This document shows, piece after piece, positions 20,713 to 60,551 of a stretch of 64,000 nt of DNA. Below the pieces are notes generated by a model. That model saw nothing but the letters and a program-made list of their open reading frames with translations. It searched no databases and had not been told where the DNA came from. Location: the NCBI GenBank assembly GCA_965228735.1, contig OZ245838.1, positions 544,001 to 608,000 on the forward strand. The letters are read 5' to 3'. The DNA is from Planctomycetota bacterium. GTDB lineage: Bacteria; Planctomycetota; UBA1135; UBA2386. Made by a program: the position numbers and the translations under genes. Every line of letters starts with the position of its first letter. Within the stretch, counting starts at the first letter, position 1.

Positions 20713-20829
20713 GCGGAACCTCTCGAATGCGGTAGGGATTGCGGTAGTCGCAACCCGAAGAGGCCGCACGACGCCCGCCGCTCGGCGGTTCGCGGTGATC
20801 GAACTAGCGATCGACGGCAGGGTTAAGAA

Positions 20830-20876
20830 TGGAGCGGGTGATCGGGATCGAACCGACGACATTCAGCTTGGGAAGC
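20830..20876 (-). tRNA. 3' half of tRNA-Gly(CCC); att-site remnant, not an intact tRNA
   Basis: Minus strand reads GCTTCCCAAGCTGAATGTCGTCGGTTCGATCCCGATCACCCGCTCCA (anticodon loop, T arm, acceptor 3' strand, CCA). No D arm or acceptor 5' strand upstream. Confidence 0.88.
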
Positions 20877-39198: not shown

Positions 39199-39822
39199 AT
39201 GAGAACCACCGTGCTCGCACTGCTATGCGGAGTCGTCTTTGGAGGCGTCCAAGCAATCGCTCAGGAGACCAAGAACGTTCCTGCGGCGAAGTCGACTACC
39301 CCGGCCACATACGTCGTCGGCGTGACGGGGATGACCTGAGGCGGTTGCGCCTCGGGGGTCCGTGAGACCCTCGCCAAGATCGCAGGCGTGAAGAGCGTCG
39401 AGATCGACCTCAAAGCCAAGACCGCGACCGTAGCCATGAAGAAGGGGGGGCTGACGCGCGAAGCTGTCGTCAAGGCGCTCGTGGACACCAAGTTCAAGGT
39501 GAGCTCCTTCGCGTCGGTCAAGGCTACGCGCATGACTCCGAAGGGCGTCTACGTCGTGGGCGTGACGGGAATGACTTGAGGCGGTTGCGCCTCGGGGGTC
39601 CGTGAGACCCTCGCCAAGATCGCGGGTGTGAATAGCGTCGAAGTCGACCTCAAGGCCAAGGCCGTGACCGTAGCCATGAAGAAGGGCTCGCTCACTCGCG
39701 AGGCTGTCGTCAAGGCACTTGCAGACACGAAGTTCAAGGTGAGCTCCTTCGCCTTGGTCGAGAAGAAACCGGCGGCGAAGAAGGCTGCCAAACCAGGCAT
39801 CAAGGCCGAGAAGAAGCTCTGA
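39199..39822 (+). CDS. Exported tandem-HMA (CopZ/MerP-like) selenoprotein with two in-frame UGA codons (GMT-U-GGC x2), 207 aa
   Basis: GAGGA RBS, signal peptide, TGA at 39337 and 39577 each in the place of the first Cys of GMTCxxC, two ~80-aa repeats in one frame, Lys/Ala-rich tail. Confidence 0.85.
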
Positions 39823-48638: not shown

Positions 48639-48856
48639 GTGTTCCGGGGACTGTCCGCAGTCGTCGCGTGTTGATGTCCTGACTGCGGAGAGCAACATGC
48701 ATGCCGTTTCGCAGCAGCCTGAGGTACGGTCGTTGCACACACTGCGACGACGAAAGCCATTGCCTTGCCGCGGTAGGGGCAGCATGTTCCCCTCCGGCGA
48801 CGCCCAATTGGGCGACTTGAACGAAGCTGGCCCCGTTGCGGCGCGACCAGATCCTG

Positions 48857-50710
48857 ATGCCATCCTCACCAGAAACTGTTCACAGCGAGCGGAGCGATAC
48901 CGTGGCGAAGCCAGCGCACGAAGCCGGTGGGCACCTGCGGCGCCGTCTGTTGCTTTGGTCACTCGGGATCGCCTTGGTGCCGATGATCTTGCTGGCGGCC
49001 CAAGGCTACCACTGTGCCAAGTCGGCCGTCCTGGATGCCGCGACTGCCAGGTTGGCTCAGCTCACCGCTTCGCGCGAGCGCCAACTAGAGCTTTGGTTCC
49101 GCGAACGAGTCGCGGATGCGGGGTTCCTCGCTGGCTGTCCGGCAGTGCGGCATCGGTGTACGACTGACAGTTCTCAGGGGGGCGTGGAGCATGGTGCGAA
49201 CGCTCTGCTAGGTCAGTTCGTGGCGAGGAACGGTTTGTATGAAGCGCTTGGGCTCTACGATCTGAAGTGGCGGGAGCTGGCTGGGGCCGGGACTGATGCG
49301 CACGGAATCGAAGATTTCGAGCGATCAGACATCAAGCTCGCGGTGCGAACCTCAACGTCGGGGGCCGCGGGGCGAATACACCGGCATGAGAACGGGCAGC
49401 TGGGCATGCACTTCGGTGCTGCAGTGATGCGTGATGGCGTCATCACTGGGTATGTCTTGACGGCTCTCGACGAATCGAAGCTCGAAGACATCTTGTCGGA
49501 TGTAGGCGCAGGGCTATCCAACAGTCGCTGCTACTTGGTGTCGTCGGAAGGGGTACTGTTGACTTCGTCCGGACTGCGAGATTCCGGGGATGCTCTCCAA
49601 GCCGAGATTGACACCGTTGGGTTTCGTCGCGCGAAAGGAGGAGACTCGGGCGCGGCGCTCTACTCCGACGCCAGCGGCCGCGAGGTGGTAGGTGGCTTCA
49701 CCGCGCTTCCCCAGATGGGGTGGGTGCTGCTGCTCGAGCAGGACGCTGCAGAGGCCTTGGCGTGGCTCCCCGAGCTCAGCTCGAGGGCGGCGCTCACGGC
49801 GCTCGTCGTCGCCCTGATCGTTGTTCTCATCGTGCGCGTGGGGGCTCGGCAACTCACGACACCACTGCAGCAGTTGGTCCGGGTCGCACATCGTGTCGGT
49901 GGCGGGGATCACGCAGCCCGCGTCGTGCCCTTGGCTCAGCCCGAGGTAGATGCTGTAGGTCGTGCGTTGAACGGCATGCTCGACGAGTTGTCGCAGGCTC
50001 GGCAGCGAATCGTGCATTCAGAGACCCTAGCTGCGATGGGGGAGATGAGTTCGGCCGTCGTTCATGAGATGCGCAATCCGCTTTCGTCGATCAAGATGAA
50101 CCTCCAAGCAATCCGGTCGGGTCTCGCAGCCGGTAGCAGGCATGTCGAGCTTGCCGATATTGCACAAGAGCAGGTTTCTCGCCTTGAGCGGATGTTCACT
50201 GACCTGTTGTCGCTGAGCCGTCCGTTGTCGATGGACTACCGCGTGCATCGACTTCGGGACGTGATCGTGGCGGCGCTCGAGGCGGTCGAGAATGAGGCCG
50301 GGGAGCTGCGCTGTCGCATCCGTGTCGAGGATGGTCACGAGGACCTTGAACTCCGGATTGATTCGGAGCGGATCCGGCAAGTGTTGGTCAATCTGTTTGA
50401 GAACGCGATGGCCGCGACCGGGCCTAACGGGCAAATCGACGTTGCGGTCCTGCTCGACGAGCGAGCGAGGATGGTGGCGCTAGAGGTTTCGGACGACGGT
50501 CCGGGGATTCCAGAAGACAACCGAGAGCGACTGTTTCAGCCATTTTTCACCTCCCGGGAGCAGGGCACGGGGCTCGGGCTGGCGATCGTTCGGAAGATCG
50601 TCGATTACCATGGGGGCCGTGTCAGCGCAGCGAACCGCGTGGATGATCGCGGAGCGGTCGCTGGTGCCGTGTTCCGAATCGAGTTGCCCAATGAGCCAGA
50701 GCCAGCATGA
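48857..50710 (+). CDS. Sensor histidine kinase (periplasmic sensor, HAMP, HisKA, HATPase)
   Basis: Two TM helices, HEMRNPL, NLFENA, DDGPG, GTGLGL. Confidence 0.93.
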   Translation: MPSSPETVHSERSDTVAKPAHEAGGHLRRRLLLWSLGIALVPMILLAAQGYHCAKSAVLDAATARLAQLTASRERQLELWFRERVADAGFLAGCPAVRHRCTTDSSQGGVEHGANALLGQFVARNGLYEALGLYDLKWRELAGAGTDAHGIEDFERSDIKLAVRTSTSGAAGRIHRHENGQLGMHFGAAVMRDGVITGYVLTALDESKLEDILSDVGAGLSNSRCYLVSSEGVLLTSSGLRDSGDALQAEIDTVGFRRAKGGDSGAALYSDASGREVVGGFTALPQMGWVLLLEQDAAEALAWLPELSSRAALTALVVALIVVLIVRVGARQLTTPLQQLVRVAHRVGGGDHAARVVPLAQPEVDAVGRALNGMLDELSQARQRIVHSETLAAMGEMSSAVVHEMRNPLSSIKMNLQAIRSGLAAGSRHVELADIAQEQVSRLERMFTDLLSLSRPLSMDYRVHRLRDVIVAALEAVENEAGELRCRIRVEDGHEDLELRIDSERIRQVLVNLFENAMAATGPNGQIDVAVLLDERARMVALEVSDDGPGIPEDNRERLFQPFFTSREQGTGLGLAIVRKIVDYHGGRVSAANRVDDRGAVAGAVFRIELPNEPEPA

Positions 50711-52055
50711 CGCCCTCCGCATTCTGATCGTCGATGACGATGCGGCCATCTGTAGGTCGCTACAGATCCTCCTTGAAGAGCAGGGACACGCCGTCGCGAC
50801 GCGCACGAAGGGCGGAGCTGCCGGCGAGGCGGTGCGAGAGTTCGAACCTGACATCGTCTTCCTGGATCTCCGCTTGCCCGATCGCGATGGGTTGAGGGTT
50901 CTGAAGGACCTGACCGACGCCGCGGACGCGCCCGAGGTCGTCATGATCACGGGGGTTCAGGACATGAAGTCGATGATCGAGGCGATCCAGATTGGAGCAC
51001 TGGACTACGTCCGCAAGCCGCTGGCGGTAGAGGATGTGCTCGTGGCGATCGAGAAGTGTCGGCAACGGCGCCGGCAGCGGCGGCCAATGGCACAGCGGGC
51101 GGACCTCGTCCCGATCACTCCCGGTGCGGAGCACCCGGATGAAATCGTCGGGTCAGACCGACGTATCCTCGAACTCCTGAAGCAGGTCGGCCTTCTATCA
51201 AGGAGTCAGGTTACGGTCCTGATCGAAGGCGAGAGCGGCACGGGAAAGGAGCTTGTCGCCCGGGCGATTCATAACGCGTCATCGCCTGCTGAGCCCTTCG
51301 TGGCAATCAACTGCGCGGCGATCGTGCCCACACTCCTCGAGAGCGAGCTCTTCGGTTATGAGAAGGGGGCATTCACTGGAGCGGATTCCAAGAAGCAAGG
51401 GAGGCTCGAGGATGCAGGGGGCGGAACGCTGTTCCTCGACGAGATCGGCGACATGCCACTCGAACTCCAGGCCAAACTCCTACGGGCCTTGCAGGAGCGC
51501 ACATTCGAACGCGTAGGGGGCAACCACAGCGTCTCCTTCGAAGCGCGAGTGCTTGCAGCTTCCCATCGAGATCTCGGAGAAATGGTCGAGCGCGGTGAGT
51601 TCCGGGAAGACCTGCTATACCGCCTATCCGTTGCGCGGCTCGAAATCCCGCCGCTTCGAGAGCGTCCCGGAGACATTCGAATCTTGGCGACCCACCTTCT
51701 TCATCGGATCCGGCGGCGCCTGGAAAGCGAGGTCACTGCCATCTCTGAGACAGCGTTGAAGCAGCTCGAGTTGCACTCGTGGCCTGGCAACGTCCGCGAA
51801 TTGGACAACGTGCTCACCCGTGCCGTGGCGCTCGCTCGTGCAGACGTGATCGAGGAAGTGGATATTGCGCCGGCTAGGCCTTCTCACGAAGCCGTCGCCG
51901 AGGATGGTCCGGTCAAGAAGCTCTGGGAGGTCGAGCGGGATCACGTCCGCCACGCACTTGACAGTACGGGATGGAACATCACGCGAACGGCGCAGGTCTT
52001 GGACATTTCGCCAACCACGCTGCGGAAGAAGATCGTCGACTACGAACTGCGCTAG
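50691..52055 (+). CDS. NtrC-family sigma54-dependent response regulator
   Basis: Receiver domain, GESGTGKE, GAFTGA, WPGNVREL, Fis-type HTH. Confidence 0.95.
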   Translation: MSQSQHDALRILIVDDDAAICRSLQILLEEQGHAVATRTKGGAAGEAVREFEPDIVFLDLRLPDRDGLRVLKDLTDAADAPEVVMITGVQDMKSMIEAIQIGALDYVRKPLAVEDVLVAIEKCRQRRRQRRPMAQRADLVPITPGAEHPDEIVGSDRRILELLKQVGLLSRSQVTVLIEGESGTGKELVARAIHNASSPAEPFVAINCAAIVPTLLESELFGYEKGAFTGADSKKQGRLEDAGGGTLFLDEIGDMPLELQAKLLRALQERTFERVGGNHSVSFEARVLAASHRDLGEMVERGEFREDLLYRLSVARLEIPPLRERPGDIRILATHLLHRIRRRLESEVTAISETALKQLELHSWPGNVRELDNVLTRAVALARADVIEEVDIAPARPSHEAVAEDGPVKKLWEVERDHVRHALDSTGWNITRTAQVLDISPTTLRKKIVDYELR

Positions 52056-53063: not shown

Positions 53064-55166
53064 TCAGAAGGTCAAGACCAGGCCAAGGCCATAGCCATGG
53101 TCGGAGTGATACGAGGTCGAGAAACCCAGGTTCTGCGTGATCGTGTAATCGATGCCGACGAGCCACTCGAATTGCGTATTGGTGTCGTATTCGACGGAGG
53201 TGCCGATCCCAAGACGGTCGGTAAGCTGGAGCCCCTTGTCGAGTGAAAGTCGGAAGTCTCCCCGGCTGTCTACGCTGAGGTTTGACATCACGAGGTAGGG
53301 CAGGCGATAGCGCACGCCCGCGAATGCGCGACTCGTTGCCCCGTCACCATCAGCGTAGCGCCAGCCCAACTCGGTGGCGAAGTTCTGATCGATGTAGCGT
53401 GACCATCCGAAATCGACCTCGATGTTGTCCTCGTGTCCACCGTCTCGGTGGTCGTCGCCGAACGCCGATGGCAGTCCGATGTCCCACCGGGTGAAGAAGT
53501 CGTTCCGCCCCTTCATGAGCATGGCACGGCCCATGGTCATGTGGTTCTGTACCGTTGCATCGAAGAATAGGTAGGCCGGTTCGAGGAGCTTCGGGTCTAC
53601 GGTGGGTTGATACGTCGGATCCTGCTGGTAGCTGAACACGCGGGCCATGCCGGCATCCATGTGGTAGAGCAGGTGGCAGTGGAAGAACCAGTCTCCGCCC
53701 TCTTCGTCGGCGACCCACTCGATCGTGCGCTTGCCCATCGGGGGGACGTCCACGGTGTGCTTGAGCGGGGAGCGTTCGCCCTGCCCGTTGAGCACGCGGA
53801 AGAAGTGACCGTGCAGGTGCAGCGGATGGTGCATCATCGTGTCGTTGATGAGCTGGATGCGCAGCACCTCGCCCTTGCGGACGCGGATCGTCGAGTTCTC
53901 GGCCAAGGTCTCGTTGTCGAAGCCCCACAGATACCGGCGCATGTCGCCGGTGAGGCGCATGGTCAGCTCGCGGACTTCGGTGCCCGGTCCGGCGATGGTA
54001 GTGTCGGAGACTGCACGCAGCAGGCCGTAGGGCGCGAATGGGCGTTCCGCAGTAGCGGCTTCCAGCGCGCGCTTTGGCATCTGGCTTGCGAGCCCCGCGG
54101 CAAGCATCTCGTCCATCACGTATAGGTTCGCCCGCGGCGGGTCGACGGCCTCGATCAGCGGCCCATCCCCCAACAGCATCGAAGCGTGTCCGCTGCCATC
54201 TTGCGCCGTGGCTCGGATCTCGAGCGTGGACCGGGTCTCTGGCATGGTAACCACGACGTCGTACGTCTCCGCCATGCCGATGAGGAGGCGCCGGACCTCG
54301 ACCGGCTCTACGCGAATGCCGTCGCTGCCCACGATCGTCAGGTTGCCTTCGCCAGCGCCGAGGTAGAAGTAGGTCGAGGCCCCGGCGTTAACGATGCGCA
54401 GCAGGACGCGTTCACCCGGGCGGGCATCGAGCTTCAGTGCTCGCTTGCCATTGGCCAGGAACGCGTCGTAGCCCACGTCCGACAAGTCCATCGCCGGCAT
54501 GCGGTCCCCCTCGCGCTCGAAGTAATCCGAAACGGCGCCTCGCCGCCAGGCTCCGAGCAGCGACTGTTGCGTCCCCTTCTTCACCGAATACCACTCGCTG
54601 CCGCGCATCAGCCAGCGCATGACCGTGGTCGGATCATCGTCGGTCCAATCGGCCAGGACGACGACGTGCTCACGATCGAACGCAACATCGGGCTTTCTGG
54701 GTTCGATGACGATCGCACCCTGGACGCCCAGTTGCTCCTGCAGCCCTGTGTGCGAGTGGTACCAATAGGTGCCCGATTGCCGCAGCCGGAACTCGAATGT
54801 GTGTTCGCCGCCAGCAGGGATTGGAGGGGTGGTCAGGTATGGGACTCCGTCCATTTCGTTGGGCACGAGCAGCCCGTGCCAGTGGATCGAAGTCTCCTCG
54901 GATGGTAGCCGGTTCTTGACCGTGATTTGGGCGAGGTCGCCTTCTCTGAATCTCAAGACCGGGCCAGGGGAGGTGCCGTTGACGGTGAGCACGGTAGTCG
55001 CTGTGCCCGCGGGTGCGCCCGGAGTCTCCGCGATTACGAGCTCGTAGCGGACGACGTCCTTGCCCGAGGGAACCTCAGAGCCCGTGGCCTGCGCAGTGCA
55101 CTCTTGGGCTGCCGTAAACATGATGAGTGCAAAGACGGGGAGCAGGCTCCATGGAGGTCGGTTCAT
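53064..55166 (-). CDS. Multicopper oxidase (CopA/PcoA-like) with a C-terminal beta-barrel-like extension
   Basis: HWHG, WYHSH, HPLHLHGH, HCHLLYHMDAGM. Confidence 0.93.
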   Translation of the reverse strand: MNRPPWSLLPVFALIMFTAAQECTAQATGSEVPSGKDVVRYELVIAETPGAPAGTATTVLTVNGTSPGPVLRFREGDLAQITVKNRLPSEETSIHWHGLLVPNEMDGVPYLTTPPIPAGGEHTFEFRLRQSGTYWYHSHTGLQEQLGVQGAIVIEPRKPDVAFDREHVVVLADWTDDDPTTVMRWLMRGSEWYSVKKGTQQSLLGAWRRGAVSDYFEREGDRMPAMDLSDVGYDAFLANGKRALKLDARPGERVLLRIVNAGASTYFYLGAGEGNLTIVGSDGIRVEPVEVRRLLIGMAETYDVVVTMPETRSTLEIRATAQDGSGHASMLLGDGPLIEAVDPPRANLYVMDEMLAAGLASQMPKRALEAATAERPFAPYGLLRAVSDTTIAGPGTEVRELTMRLTGDMRRYLWGFDNETLAENSTIRVRKGEVLRIQLINDTMMHHPLHLHGHFFRVLNGQGERSPLKHTVDVPPMGKRTIEWVADEEGGDWFFHCHLLYHMDAGMARVFSYQQDPTYQPTVDPKLLEPAYLFFDATVQNHMTMGRAMLMKGRNDFFTRWDIGLPSAFGDDHRDGGHEDNIEVDFGWSRYIDQNFATELGWRYADGDGATSRAFAGVRYRLPYLVMSNLSVDSRGDFRLSLDKGLQLTDRLGIGTSVEYDTNTQFEWLVGIDYTITQNLGFSTSYHSDHGYGLGLVLTF

Positions 55167-56178: not shown

Positions 56179-56194
56179 AGCAAGGCGCGTGCCG
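56179..56194 (-). promoter_or_regulatory. Sigma54 (-24/-12) promoter
   Basis: Minus strand CGGCACGCGCCTTGCT, upstream of the YHS-multicopper oxidase cluster. Confidence 0.7.
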
Positions 56195-56282: not shown

Positions 56283-56837
56283 ATGACCGATTCCGAAAGC
56301 CATAAGCGACTCTTGATCCTGCTCGCCAGTCGTCGCCAGTTTCTGGCGTTTCTCGAGCGCCGTGTAGCATCGCGGGATGAGGCCGAGGAGATCCTGCAGG
56401 ACGCGTTTGCGCGTGGCGTCGAGCGCGTCGTCGACGTAGGCGAGGAGGGGAACGTCGTTGCCTGGTTCTACCGGATCCTCCGAAATGCCATCGTGGATCG
56501 GCATCGCCGGCGGTCCGAGGGGCACCCAGGCCTAGAGATTGACTCCGACCTCCTCCAGGTAGCTGAGGATGCCGAACGGCAGCGCGACGTCTGCGTCTGC
56601 ATCCAGGGGTTGTTGCCGCTCATCCATCCGGACTATGCAGAGCTTGTCCGGCTCGTAGATCTGGAGGGCCGGTCCGTCGGGGCGGTCGCCAAGGATCGCG
56701 GCGTCAGTGCTGGGAGTGCCCGCGTTCGCCTGCACCGCGCTCGAGCGGCTCTGCGGCGGGAAGTGCAGCTCACCTGTCGCACATGTGCCGAGCACGGCTG
56801 CCTCGACTGCAGTTGCGCGAGGCCGCCGCAGGCCTGA
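56283..56837 (+). CDS. CorE-like (ECF44-type) metal-responsive ECF sigma factor
   Basis: Sigma2 AEEILQDAF..WFYRILRN, linker CVC, sigma4 RVRLHRAR, C-terminal CRTCAEHGCLDCSC. Confidence 0.8.
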   Translation: MTDSESHKRLLILLASRRQFLAFLERRVASRDEAEEILQDAFARGVERVVDVGEEGNVVAWFYRILRNAIVDRHRRRSEGHPGLEIDSDLLQVAEDAERQRDVCVCIQGLLPLIHPDYAELVRLVDLEGRSVGAVAKDRGVSAGSARVRLHRARAALRREVQLTCRTCAEHGCLDCSCARPPQA

Positions 56838-56917
56838 CGGGGCGTCCTCTGGCACGGTAGGTGTAACGTTCGCCCAGTCTGGTCGTCAGCGTGGACATGC
56901 AAAGCGAACGGAATCCC

Positions 56918-59182
56918 ATGTCAGATGAATCTCACCACGACGCCCCAGAGGCCAAGACCTGCTGCCATGGGGGCGAGCACGCCAACGCCGACGGGCATGG
57001 TCATGGCCTCCATCCTGCTAGAGGTCACACCGCGGGGGCCGGTCGACCAGCGCCCCCTGACACCTACACGTGTCCCATGCACCCGGAGATCGAGCAGGCA
57101 GGGCCGGGAACCTGCCCCATCTGCGGCATGGCGCTCGAGCCCGTCGATGCGAGCGCTGAGGCGGACGATACCGAGTACCGCGACATGCGGCGCCGCTTCG
57201 TCTGGAGCGCGGTGCTGGCCGTCCCGCTGCTCGTGCTTGCGATGGGGGACATGGTGCTCCCTGGCGCTCCGATCCATGGACTGTTTGGCGGGTTCTCACG
57301 TTGGCTGGAGCTGGCGTTCGCGACGCCGGTGGTGTCCTGGGCGGGCCTACCGCTGTTGGTGCGGGGCTGGGAATCCGTCAGGCGTTGGCAGCTCAACATG
57401 TTCACGCTGATTGGGCTCGGCGTCTCCGTCGCGTACGTCTACAGCGTGCTGGCGCTCGTGGCGCCCGATTGGTTCCCCGAGGGCTTCCGTGGAGCGCACG
57501 GCGTGGCCGTCTACTTCGAGGCCGCCGCGGTGATCGTGGCGCTCGTGCTGCTCGGTCAGGTCATGGAGCTGCGCGCGCGCAGCAGCACCGGCGCCGCGAT
57601 CCGGGCGTTGCTCGATCTGTCGCCGAAGATGACTCGGCGCATCGGCTCCGATGGCGCAGAGGAGGAGGTCGCTGTCGAGTCCGTCCGAAAGGGGGATCGC
57701 CTGCGAGTTCGTCCCGGCGAGGCCGTTCCGGTCGATGCCATCGTCGTCGAGGGCGGCAGCACCGTTGATGAGTCGATGGTCACGGGCGAGCCGGTCCCCG
57801 TGGCCAAGGCGGCGGGCGATCAGGTGATCGGCGGAACGGTCAACACGACGGGGAGCCTCACCATCGAGGCCGAGAAGGTCGGCGGCGAAACGCTGTTAGC
57901 ACAGATCGTCCAGATGGTCGCCGATGCACAGCGAAGCCGAGCACCGATCCAGCGGCTTGCCGATCGTGTCGCCGCCTGGTTCGTTCCCATCGTGGTCGCG
58001 TGTGCGGCGCTCGCGTTCGTCGTCTGGAGCGTTTGGGGGCCGGAGCCCCGCCTCGCCTATGCGCTGCTCAACGCGGTTGCCGTGCTCATCATCGCCTGCC
58101 CGTGCGCGCTCGGCCTGGCGACGCCGATGTCGATCATGGTGGCGACGGGGCGGGGCGCGCAGTTGGGCGTGCTGTTCCGCAACGCACAGGCGATCGAGAG
58201 CCTTCGTGCCATCGACACATTGGTCGTGGACAAGACCGGCACGCTGACGCTCGGACAGCCGAAACTGACTAACGTGCAGGTCGTCAGCGAAGCCGGAGCA
58301 GACGAGTCCGCCGTCTTGCGACTGGCGGCGAGCCTGGAGACGCGCAGCGAACACCCACTCGCGCGCGCCATCGTCGAGGGTGCGAGTGAGCGCGAGATCC
58401 AGTTGTCGGGCGTCGATGGGTTCGAGTCCGTGACGGGCAAGGGCGTCATGGGCCGGGTCGAGCAACAGGATGTCGCCCTTGGCAATCTCGCGTTGATGGA
58501 AAAGATCGGCGTGGCCGCGTCGGACGCGGACCGTACTCGGGCCGCCCGGCTGCAGGGTGACGGGGCCACGGTCATGTTCTTGGCCGCGAGTGGGCAGCTG
58601 ATCGGCATGCTGGCAGTCGCGGACCCGATCAAGGACAGCGCGCCGGAGGCCATCCGCGCCCTGCACGGTGCCGGTCTGCGCGTCGTGATGTTGACCGGCG
58701 ACAACCGGGCAACGGCCGAAGCCGTCGGGCGAGAACTGGGCATCGACGAGGTGATCGCCGATGCTCTGCCCGATCAGAAGCTCGCGACGATCGAGCAACT
58801 CCAGGAAGGCGGCGCCAAGGTGGCGATGGCCGGCGATGGCATCAACGACTCGCCTGCGCTCGCGAAGGCGGACGTGGGCATCGCGATGGGAACAGGAACG
58901 GACGTCGCGATGGAGAGCGCCGCCGTGACGCTCGTCAGGGGCGACCTGCGAGGCATCGTGCGTGCGCGCGAGCTGAGCGCAGCGACGATGCGGAACATCA
59001 AGCAGAACCTCCTGTTCGCGTTTGGCTACAACGCCGCCGGTGTGCCTTTGGCTGCGGGCGTACTGTTTCCGTTCACGGGTTGGCTGTTGAGTCCGATGAT
59101 CGCGGCCGCTGCGATGAGCCTGAGCTCGGTGTCGGTTATCGTCAACGCGCTGCGGCTACGTGCGTTCGGGTCGGCTGGTTGA
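56918..59182 (+). CDS. copA: Cu(I)-translocating P1B-1 ATPase
   Basis: YTCPMHP..CPICGM, TGEP, CPC, DKTGT, GDGIND, YN, MSLSS. Confidence 0.95.
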
Positions 59183-59342
59183 TGAGGCCGCGCGCGCTGA
59201 GCCGCCACGCGTGGCGGTGCCCTCGGCCGCCATGTGTTTGGCCGGACAGCGACGGCGCTGACAGGTTTCGTTGCCGGGATGGCCGTGCGAATTGGGCTGT
59301 CCCCGTGGTGGTCGGTGGGCGGTGATCGAGGGTTGCGCGGCG

Positions 59343-59358
59343 AGGCACGCACGTTGCT
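59343..59358 (+). promoter_or_regulatory. Sigma54-like promoter
   Basis: AGGCACGCACGTTGCT (GG-N10-GC). Confidence 0.55.
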
Positions 59359-59456
59359 GTCTTTGTGTCGCGATGCGTTGCAATAATGGTTGTCCAGCAC
59401 GCTGGTCTCGGCGGTGCTTCTGGCGCTCGTTCGCACGGTCCCTTTCGGTCTCGGGG

Positions 59457-60137
59457 GTGGCAATCGTGCTCGCCGTGTTCCTTCTTGCGTGCGCGGCGCC
59501 CCGTGGCTCGGGTGCGGGAGGAGTTCGCAACCGCATTGCGCCGAGTGCGTTTCGAGTCTCTCGGCCTTACTTCAGGATCGGTGACCCCTACCCGTTCGCC
59601 ACCTGCCCAGTTTCAGGTGAGGACTTGGCCGTGACCAAGACTGGGCTCATCAAGTCCTACGGCGGTCGCGAGGTGCGGTTCTGTTGCAGTCAGTGTTCGC
59701 GGTTGTTCGGTCAGGATCTGGTGAGCAGTTTTGCAGAGGTTGACCGGTGGATCGTAGCGGACCAGGAGGGGATCTACGCGATGAGGGATTCAGTCGTGAC
59801 CGGGAGGCAGTTGCCGGCACGCCCCGTCGAGTTCGTCGTAGGCAACCGGCTCGTCAGGGTTGATTCGAGCGACGAGAGGGAGGCCGTCATGAAGGGGCCG
59901 AGCAAGTTCCTCGATGCTCTGAGCAGGGCTGCCGCGCGTTCCCAGGCAGACGGCTACGGCCTCAGTAGCTGCCCCGTGAGTGGTCGTCCGATAGGCCTGC
60001 CTGCGCCCCCGTACCTGGAAGCTGTTGTCGCGGGTCGCCTGATTCGGGTTTGTTGTCCAGACTGCCTTGCGAACATCGATGAGAATCCCGCGAAGTACAT
60101 TGCGGTTGTCGATGCAGCGCGCAAGTCGCCGGGGTAG
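59457..60137 (+). CDS. Lipoprotein with three YHS/TRASH-like repeats, paralog of 55347-56060 (start uncertain)
   Basis: GDPYPFATCPVSG shared with the paralog; FCCSQC, VCCPDC; lipobox LLAC. Confidence 0.75.
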   Translation: MAIVLAVFLLACAAPRGSGAGGVRNRIAPSAFRVSRPYFRIGDPYPFATCPVSGEDLAVTKTGLIKSYGGREVRFCCSQCSRLFGQDLVSSFAEVDRWIVADQEGIYAMRDSVVTGRQLPARPVEFVVGNRLVRVDSSDEREAVMKGPSKFLDALSRAAARSQADGYGLSSCPVSGRPIGLPAPPYLEAVVAGRLIRVCCPDCLANIDENPAKYIAVVDAARKSPG

Positions 60138-60162: not shown

Positions 60163-60178
60163 TGGCATGGTGGTTGCG
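60163..60178 (+). promoter_or_regulatory. Sigma54 (-24/-12) promoter
   Basis: TGGCATGGTGGTTGCG, ending about 70 nt upstream of ATG 60249. Confidence 0.65.
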
Positions 60179-60248: not shown

Positions 60249-60551
60249 ATGAAGCATCTCTGGATTGCCTGCGCAGTCATCGTCGCGCTGTCATTCGCTG
60301 GCTGCAGCACGGTCAAGCACGACTCTCAGCTCACGTCTACCCAAGTCCACCTTGTCCTGGACAAGACGCCGACTTGAGGCGGTTGTGCCGCCACCGTGCG
60401 TGGTGCCGTGACCAAGCTCCCTGGCGTGTCGGGAATCGAGGTCGAGCCTGGTTCGGCCGATATCGTCGTCAGCCTTGACCCCAATGCGACAACTGTAGAG
60501 CAGTTGCTTGCGGGAATGGACGCCGCTGGGCAGTCGGCAAAGCGCAAGTAG
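60249..60551 (+). CDS. HMA-domain lipoprotein with in-frame UGA (TPT-U-GGC), predicted selenoprotein, 100 aa
   Basis: Lipobox FAGC; TGA at 60375-60377; read-through gives GGCAATVRGAVTKLPGVSGIEVEPGSADIVVSLDPNATTVEQLLAGMDAAGQSAKRK*, a complete HMA pattern. Confidence 0.82.

Follow-up and report, generated by a model that had tools for sequence, protein, structure and literature searches.

A predicted selenocysteine-containing HMA lipoprotein and its family in an order of Planctomycetota

A small planctomycete gene very probably encodes a selenoprotein: an HMA lipoprotein in which, as sequence comparison indicates, the in-frame TGA at codon 43 is read as selenocysteine. The gene lies at positions 60249 to 60551 of the window, by which we mean the whole stretch of 64,000 nucleotides analysed here. 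This reading is very likely because the host carries the Sec machinery, the TGA is found throughout the family and kept in assembled contigs, the hairpin behind it covaries and dN/dS is low. Gene callers would cut the gene at its internal TGA. The features of the gene are as follows.

60249 to 60551, plus strand: HMA lipoprotein gene, 100 residues, with an in-frame TGA and predicted Sec43 in a UxxC motif
60249 to 60305, plus strand: predicted lipoprotein signal peptide with lipobox FAGC (Cys19 codon at 60303-60305), from sequence and alignment
60339 to 60545, plus strand: HMA domain, beta-alpha-beta-beta-alpha-beta, residues 31-99, from AlphaFold and Foldseek
60375 to 60377, plus strand: TGA in place of the first Cys of the HMA CxxC, a predicted selenocysteine codon, from family comparison and contigs
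60384 to 60386, plus strand: Cys46 codon, second predicted metal ligand, invariant in the 18-member alignment

Results

The read-through product has a predicted HMA fold behind a predicted lipoprotein signal

The frame opens with ATG at 60249, runs from the TGA directly into GGC GGT TGT and closes with a TAG that ends at 60551, just as the earlier note on this DNA had described it, together with the FAGC lipobox and a complete HMA pattern. The 100-residue read-through product scores 38.9 bits against Pfam HMA (PF00403), above the gathering cut-off of 24.8. AlphaFold, supplied with an 18-sequence alignment, gave a confident HMA fold with a pLDDT of about 95 across residues 31-100. The top structural matches of this model in Foldseek are MerP (1afi and 1osd, rmsd 1.7-2.2 Å), and ATP7A/B domains and CopZ were also matched. 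In a sequence search, nearly all of the 42 solved-structure matches to the HMA fold are metal-binding. The N-terminus has the basic region, hydrophobic stretch and lipobox cysteine of a lipoprotein, and the host genome contains lspA (signal peptidase II). Cys19 is present in 17 of the 18 aligned members, these 17 being the ones whose sequence reaches it. On the strength of the model and these signals, we consider it highly probable that the product is exported, lipidated at Cys19 and held at the membrane.

The TGA at codon 43 is unchanged in the contigs (assembled contigs, not raw reads) of eight public runs, and neither TGC nor TGT, either of which the earlier note had named as grounds for abandoning its reading, was found in its place. 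Four of the eight runs have contigs identical across the gene, two of these possibly being the source of the same DNA, and the other four have contigs about 98% identical, with three in-gene differences that read as synonymous. Furthermore, two estuary metatranscriptomes have contigs over this gene only which span the TGA, a weak observation that comes without a DNA control.

The host encodes the Sec machinery

The host genome (G000) is a single contig of 7.19 Mb with 69% GC. Its selA, selB and selD all score above the profile cut-offs, selD itself with one TGA, and its tRNA-Sec reaches 76.6 bits (cut-off 47), so that the selA, selB, selC and selD required of a host are all present. Moreover, selA was found in all 41 related genomes.

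Other frames of G000 also carry a UGA followed by a hairpin with a CGUGN loop. These further selenoprotein candidates, with TGA at 7165651 (minus), 5285933 (minus), 7121632 (plus), 2123 (minus), 5458926 (plus), 5497385 (plus) and 4855623 (minus) of G000:C1, comprise a thioredoxin-like UxxC frame, a peroxiredoxin-like UxxC frame (by motif), a rhodanese UxxG frame, an HMA-like U-x-x-T frame and three unnamed frames, and G000 looks selenoprotein-rich. That unrelated frames (thioredoxin-like, peroxiredoxin-like and rhodanese) share the UGA and the same hairpin type supports the selenocysteine reading.

A family with TGA at the same position extends across the order

A search with the single protein found matches in 18 of 41 related genomes, 22 of the 25 matches having exactly one in-frame TGA. 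With a profile built from 18 Sec members, a search of the kind that the earlier note had proposed, 68 of the 301 genomes of the order were matched; exactly one TGA was present in 96 of the 107 matches and none in the other 11, although Cys forms may be under-sampled as a result of how the profile was built. The argument that a random nonsense mutation is unlikely is thus borne out in both genome sets. Beyond the order, a sample of 401 genomes from across the phylum yielded a single match below 1e-15, and this was a Cys form.

From 143 fetched locus rows we kept those that scored 50 bits or more and had a parsable motif (92 TGA, 8 Cys) and excluded 13 rows in which no motif could be parsed, three of them above 50 bits. 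One mis-parsed TGA row was dropped, leaving 91 Sec genes from 60 genomes, 30 genera and 4 families. Their motif is UxxC, with GG as the intervening residues in 55 of the 91. The proposal of a family of exported U-G-G-C metal-binding selenoproteins therefore stands as regards the family, while the motif has to be widened to UxxC. A loose pattern finds a lipobox-like stretch in 85 of the 91 members, and the length from U to stop is 58-61 residues in 87 of them. Behind the hairpin, a comparison with the nearest orthologue (L008) gives a dN/dS of 0.04, and the median over 88 close, non-independent pairs, one of which exceeds 1, is 0.295; the loss of purifying selection behind the TGA, which would have told against the earlier note, is thus the opposite of what we found.

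In a quick tree, which is poorly resolved and gives the subclade of the 60249 to 60551 copy weak support (SH-aLRT 85), the Cys forms are nested inside Sec branches; they share the neighbours of the Sec forms and have no hairpin. What protein databases contain of the family is mostly fragments that begin after the UGA, together with full-length Cys forms and one version with W. When 1.84 billion representatives were searched with a profile, an approach blind to TGA-broken genes, most of the matches were multi-HMA ATPases and a few were full-length Cys forms. A pattern-based contig scan found only three near relatives.

Several further frames were observed along the way. A third U-HMA lipoprotein of the host (G000:C1:494019-494315, minus strand, loci L024/L041) has PS-U-GGC and the same hairpin, is 47% identical to the 60249 to 60551 product and follows genes for a multicopper oxidase and a small YHS-like lipoprotein. 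A fourth family member (G000:C1:3694744-3695055, minus strand, L111) sits in a winged-helix/membrane-protein neighbourhood with the stem variant ACCGC/GCGGU and is probably a chromosomal copy. Near G000:C1 501252 (plus strand, L041:17115-17600) there is a lipoprotein with a weak HMA match and two in-frame TGA codons (U-L-P-U). In L143 (G628:C297), a frame from about 1764 carries a UxxC HMA domain that continues into a Dioxygenase_C domain, with 237 residues after U. Other exported HMA-like frames in the phylum (L053, L061, L069 and L155-L159) show the motifs U-x-x-x-U, U-x-x-x-C and U-G-G-U, and related HMA-like frames in L107-L110 have C-G-[DE]-C-C motifs and no TGA. This variety suggests that Planctomycetota hold many separate Sec-HMA subfamilies.

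A second HMA gene with in-frame TGA lies in the same window.

39199 to 39822, plus strand: exported HMA protein of two domains; an 8-bp hairpin with a CGUGA loop follows each of its TGA codons (39337 and 39577)

This protein reads MT-U-GGC twice and has a signal peptide without an evident lipobox. It had been described as a first gene 21 kb away, and the distance to its first TGA is indeed 21.0 kb. As for its being a paralogue with a stop at the homologous Cys, the two products are distant kin, about 30% identical over the HMA part, but not of one subfamily: the two-domain protein falls outside the lipoprotein clade in the poorly resolved quick tree, and its hairpins are in a register shifted by 4 nt relative to that of the 60249 to 60551 gene. 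Each gene strengthens the case that the other encodes a Sec-HMA protein, although their subfamilies differ.

The hairpin behind the UGA covaries

60389 to 60405, plus strand: SECIS-like hairpin, 6-bp stem and 5-nt loop CGUGC (60395-60399), starting 11 nt after the UGA

Throughout the family the hairpin has a 6-bp stem and a CGUG(C/A) loop, with G also seen at the last position, and in a minority of members it is displaced by four bases. Around such a loop, a stem of 5 bp or more occurs in 90 of the 91 Sec genes, in none of the 8 Cys family members and in none of 24 other Cys HMA domains, counts for which the loop pattern was derived from the same data that it was scored on. Across 86 aligned Sec genes, 95.2% of the cells pair. 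Both partners have changed in 77 cells, compared with 20.8 in shuffles (none of 500 shuffles was as high), and the covariation is 0.47 as against at most 0.09 in slid controls. Synonymous wobble bases match their pairing partner in 74 of 75 Arg and 69 of 69 Gly codons. Protein selection cannot explain why these wobble bases track their partners. RNAalifold returned no structure from all 86 rows because eight of them are register-shifted; with these left out, it recovered the hairpin from the 78 in-register rows (-10.4). A separate observation concerns the second ligand codon (+3 after the UGA), which is TGT in 61 of 92 rows, whereas TGT makes up some 13-15% of the Cys codons of G000; another constraint at the RNA level is possible.

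In DNA as GC-rich as this, the hairpin does not stand out by folding energy alone. That of the 60249 to 60551 copy has -6.9 kcal/mol as an isolated 17 nt and -7.9 with flanks, which is borderline against a -7.5 rule. Folded together with the UGA, the region adopts a competing hairpin instead and does no better than shuffles (z 0.46); the ribosome would be expected to cover the first bases of the competitor. A Cys-codon CopA domain also folds a hairpin at the corresponding position. Since a genome-wide scan of G000 for UGA plus hairpin showed no enrichment at the spacing of the family, such a hairpin has no diagnostic value unless it is conserved.

The minimal E. coli fdhF element has an 11-nt spacer and a 17-nt hairpin, and the geometry of the family matches it. 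The bSECIS model, as given in PMC13188914, has a loop of 3-9 nt with G in the first two loop positions and a stem of 4-16 bp, 16-37 nt from the UGA. With its loop CGUGC, in which a G is followed by a U among five nucleotides, its 6-bp upper stem and 17 nt between UGA and loop, the element at 60389 to 60405 has this geometry, and differs from the model in the borderline free energy of this copy and in a family loop, CGUG(C/A/G), that is fixed in sequence.

Alternative readings of the TGA

The UGA might be decoded as an ordinary amino acid (Cys or Trp), through a suppressor tRNA or a changed code. Eight Cys forms of the family exist and one family protein is translated in a database with W at the UGA position, the latter probably through the gene caller's choice of code. 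TGA is nevertheless the commonest stop of long frames in G000 (2855 of 4228), the selA, selB and EF-Tu matches there are free of internal stops, the sole UCA-anticodon tRNA found in that genome is a bona fide tRNA-Sec, and the hairpin is tied to the TGA forms. As TGA is still the commonest stop, recoding would be site-specific rather than a sign of a changed code. Stop usage and the single UCA tRNA thus led us to reject a changed code or suppressor tRNA, and we rate ordinary decoding as very improbable.

It is hardly credible, in our estimate, that the gene is a pseudogene or the product of a sequencing error with the TGA as a true stop. Such a reading would fit the databases, which hold only pieces of family members, for example fragments of 57-58 residues beginning behind the UGA, and the fact that a fold other than the SECIS has the lowest energy in this copy once the UGA is included. 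However, the identical TGA stands in 91 genes from 30 genera as well as in the contigs of the eight runs, the three in-gene differences of the strains about 98% identical are synonymous, dN/dS downstream is 0.04 and the covariation of the hairpin is strict. These conservation data refute the pseudogene reading, and the contigs of the eight runs (again contigs, not raw reads) rule out a sequencing error.

The gene lies on a probable integrative island

20827 to 64000, no strand: left part of a 78.9-kb island (G000:564,827-643,706), with a 50-bp copy of the tRNA-Gly(CCC) 3' end at 20827-20876

The island is bounded by this 50-bp repeat of the tRNA-Gly(CCC) 3' end, has a lower GC content (61-64%) and runs past the window to a MobF relaxase (195.4, cut-off 100) and a tyrosine recombinase that scores below the cut-offs of named families. 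A stretch of G013, which is a genome of another genus, matches it at 99.98% identity, the differences being 10 mismatches, 2 gaps and a 1.4-kb insertion. The att repeat at a tRNA 3' end, the recombinase, the relaxase and the near-identical copy elsewhere mark it as a putative integrative mobilisable element, and the sequence makes it likely that the island was recently transferred. Cross-assembly of the two MAGs is a less likely source of the likeness between G000 and G013. An extra att-like copy at G000:C1 541748-541798 hints that this tRNA-Gly carries another island in tandem.

Copper genes surround the gene and part of its family

48836 to 52055, plus strand: histidine kinase and sigma54-dependent response regulator (Pfam)
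53064 to 55166, minus strand: multicopper oxidase (Pfam)
56283 to 56837, plus strand: CorE-like ECF sigma factor with CxC between sigma2 and sigma4 and a C-terminal Cys-rich domain (sequence, Pfam)
56891 to 59182, plus strand: copper-type P1B ATPase, CopA-like, with CPC, YN, MxxSS and an N-terminal HMBD (TIGR01511, 590.7 bits, cut-off 397)
59271 to 60137, plus strand: YHS/TRASH-like ORF, start uncertain, Pfam matches below cut-off
60163 to 60177, plus strand: sigma54-type -24/-12 consensus site, 71 nt before the ATG (consensus match, predicted function)

The 60249 to 60551 gene closes a same-strand run made up of the CorE-like ECF sigma factor, the P1B ATPase and the YHS/TRASH-like ORF. Of the copA and YHS genes that had been placed upstream, copA is clear from its TIGR01511 score, whereas the other is no more than YHS/TRASH-like, below the Pfam cut-off. 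The sigma factor was assigned by CorE features described in PMC4937300. We note it as a CorE/ECF44-like metal-sensing sigma factor in a planctomycete, and CorE/ECF44-like homologues recur beside tandem U-HMA pairs, DUF1259 and CopA in G082, G529, G532, G567 and G600.

The sigma54 promoter claimed for the gene holds as a consensus site, with correct spacing between -24 GG and -12 GC, but not as a conserved one. G000 has two rpoN genes and an activator, and contains 33 sigma54-like sites compared with 4-17 at wrong spacings; the window has 2 where 0.29 are expected, a number reached in 5 of 100 shuffles. Upstream of family members such a site was found in only 1 of 100, the 60249 to 60551 copy itself, and it was not seen in the sequence compared for the nearest orthologues, the 72%-identical one included, so family-wide sigma54 control is ruled out. 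The site at 60163-60177 is plausibly a local promoter rather than a family feature, and the response regulator of 48836 to 52055 is a possible activator of it. The second sigma54-like site of the window (56180-56194, minus strand) lies upstream of a minus-strand YHS/TRASH-like gene.

Homologues of CopA/ZntA, multicopper oxidase, CusA/CzcA or CorE were found by tblastn in 11 of 20 subclade loci and in 2 of 40 other loci, against a background of 2.6% of random 18-kb windows of G000. These loci are 6.6-18 kb long, the kin are not independent, and the copper loci of the subclade fall into about three arrangements. Co-occurrence with cop/czc loci, which the earlier note had wanted examined, is thus seen in the subclade but rarely among the other members, and its idea of a Sec-based arm of the copper response is plausible to the same extent. 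Family-wide copper linkage was rejected on the 2 of 40 loci outside the subclade, where a winged-helix/membrane-protein cluster and a GHL10 hydrolase are the most frequent neighbours. Overall, only 13 of the 60 wide loci contain copper or metal-efflux genes. Within the subclade, orthologues 72-82% identical follow a different multicopper oxidase. The island also encodes Zn/Cd-type and CzcA-like exporters (putative, named from sequence reading), and the context therefore does not fix the metal. A general scan, which was not directed at mer, found no mer family among 13 neighbouring proteins of the window or 91 neighbour representatives.

Discussion

We propose that the product is a selenocysteine HMA metallochaperone, tethered to the membrane, that buffers Cu(I) or hands it on outside the cytoplasm for its copper-export neighbours, a role that we regard as probable, with moderate confidence. 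Comparison shows a conserved UGA at codon 43 with a covarying 6-bp hairpin, and a host with selA, selB, selD and tRNA-Sec. SelB would bind the hairpin and insert selenocysteine to give the 100-residue protein, a step of which we are nearly sure from the sequence; without selenium, translation would stop at a 42-residue stub. Export and lipidation at Cys19 would then leave a MerP/CopZ-like fold on a short linker to the membrane, as the model makes very likely. By analogy with other HMA domains, Sec43 and Cys46 are likely to bind one soft metal ion. Selenolate is a softer and more acidic ligand than thiolate. For the subclade, context slightly favours Cu(I) as the ion, received from CopA and passed towards a multicopper oxidase or an efflux system, and the metal or the role may be a different one for chromosomal members that lie away from metal loci.

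The chief competitor, which we hold to be possible though rather improbable, is a true selenoprotein with a job other than copper: extracytoplasmic redox (selenenylsulfide/dithiol) or scavenging of Hg, Ag, Cd or Zn, captured by copper islands. It draws on the 47 of 60 wide loci with no copper or metal-efflux gene, on MerP as the best structural match of the model, and on UxxC as the typical redox motif in the selenoprotein catalogue of PMC13188914. Loop 5 has Gln in 20 of the 22 members of the subclade and mostly Glu elsewhere, a difference that may reflect different metals, and Glu might favour divalent ions in the members outside the subclade. The loop-5 aromatic residue of Cu(I) chaperones is not present in the family by sequence comparison. 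The canonical HMA motif is MxCxxC, and the Met two residues before the first ligand is absent in all 91 Sec members. Against a non-copper job, the subclade retains copper neighbours in its roughly three arrangements, including that of the 72-82% identical orthologues beside another multicopper oxidase, has its near-constant Gln, and belongs to a fold that binds metal in nearly all of the solved structures matched. A copper function is plausible for the subclade of the 60249 to 60551 copy.

More tentatively, the copper chaperone reading can be extended to the whole order, a picture that we would put below even chances. The UxxC HMA lipoproteins, as an uncatalogued family, would form a selenium-dependent extracytoplasmic copper chaperone arm, of which one branch was recruited to copper clusters and moves between genera on an integrative element that has three Sec codons and functions in Sec-competent hosts alone. 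Helix 1 would owe its sequence to the SECIS hairpin (base pairing survives the swaps between A-T-V-R-G and T-A-V-R-G), and copper tolerance would depend on the supply of selenium.

If the selenocysteine reading is true, at least 91 unannotated genes join the bacterial selenoproteome, in Planctomycetota, and a small foldable protein becomes available, in natural Sec and Cys versions, for the study of selenocysteine in a metal-binding rather than a catalytic site. The compensatory changes are unusually clean for a bacterial SECIS and would be useful for training predictors, and selenoprotein genes would be placed on a recently transferred metal-resistance island. The covariation and the mobile island are the strongest parts of the case.

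Comparison with known systems

HMA-fold selenoproteins are already known, so the 60249 to 60551 gene is not new as a kind; they are catalogued as NF041115, as NF045683 and in Table 1 of PMC13188914, which lists NF041115 (UxxU, 'putative mercuric reductase'), a P1B ATPase (UxxC) and a mercuric transport protein. The lipoprotein family reaches none of these cut-offs. We found no literature description of exported UxxC HMA lipoproteins, although Haft and Tolstoy 2025 or supplements may hold one. The main text of deep-Sep makes no mention of HMA, heavy metals, CopZ, MerP, copper or Planctomycetes, and Planctomycetota go unmentioned in the main text of the two selenoproteome reviews that were searched for the term.

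Like NF041115 (UxxU_metal_bind), which all 18 alignment members match weakly, the product is an HMA-fold protein that stands alone and whose metal motif contains Sec; it differs in its score (30.5 bits, cut-off 95), in having UxxC rather than UxxU and in its lipoprotein signal, and G000 has no match to NF041115 above cut-off. With the P1B ATPase selenoprotein of PMC13188914 Table 1 it shares UxxC, and with both that ATPase and the MerT/CopZ fusion selenoprotein NF045683 a Sec in a heavy-metal transport context. Those two are membrane transporters, whereas the present product is a free 100-residue lipoprotein, which scores 16.7 bits against NF045683 (cut-off 375) and lacks the membrane domain.

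MerP (TIGR02052; 1afi, 1osd) is likewise an exported single HMA domain and, at 30% identity and an rmsd of 1.7-2.2 Å, the top Foldseek match. The product departs from it in score (32.8 bits, cut-off 92.55), in Sec for the first Cys, in the predicted lipid anchor and, as far as its neighbours were scanned, in lying beside copper genes instead of mer genes. Finally, the product shares with CopZ/Atx1 (NF033795, NF033794; 2qif, 6ff2, 1cpz) the fold, the two-ligand loop and the place beside copA. It scores below their cut-offs (30.5 as against 91, and 22.6 as against 95), has neither the Met of MxCxxC nor the loop-5 Tyr/Phe, and, whereas CopZ proteins (NF033795, NF033794 and NF047957, all of whose cut-offs lie above it) have no signal peptide, it bears a lipoprotein signal and would be exported rather than cytoplasmic.
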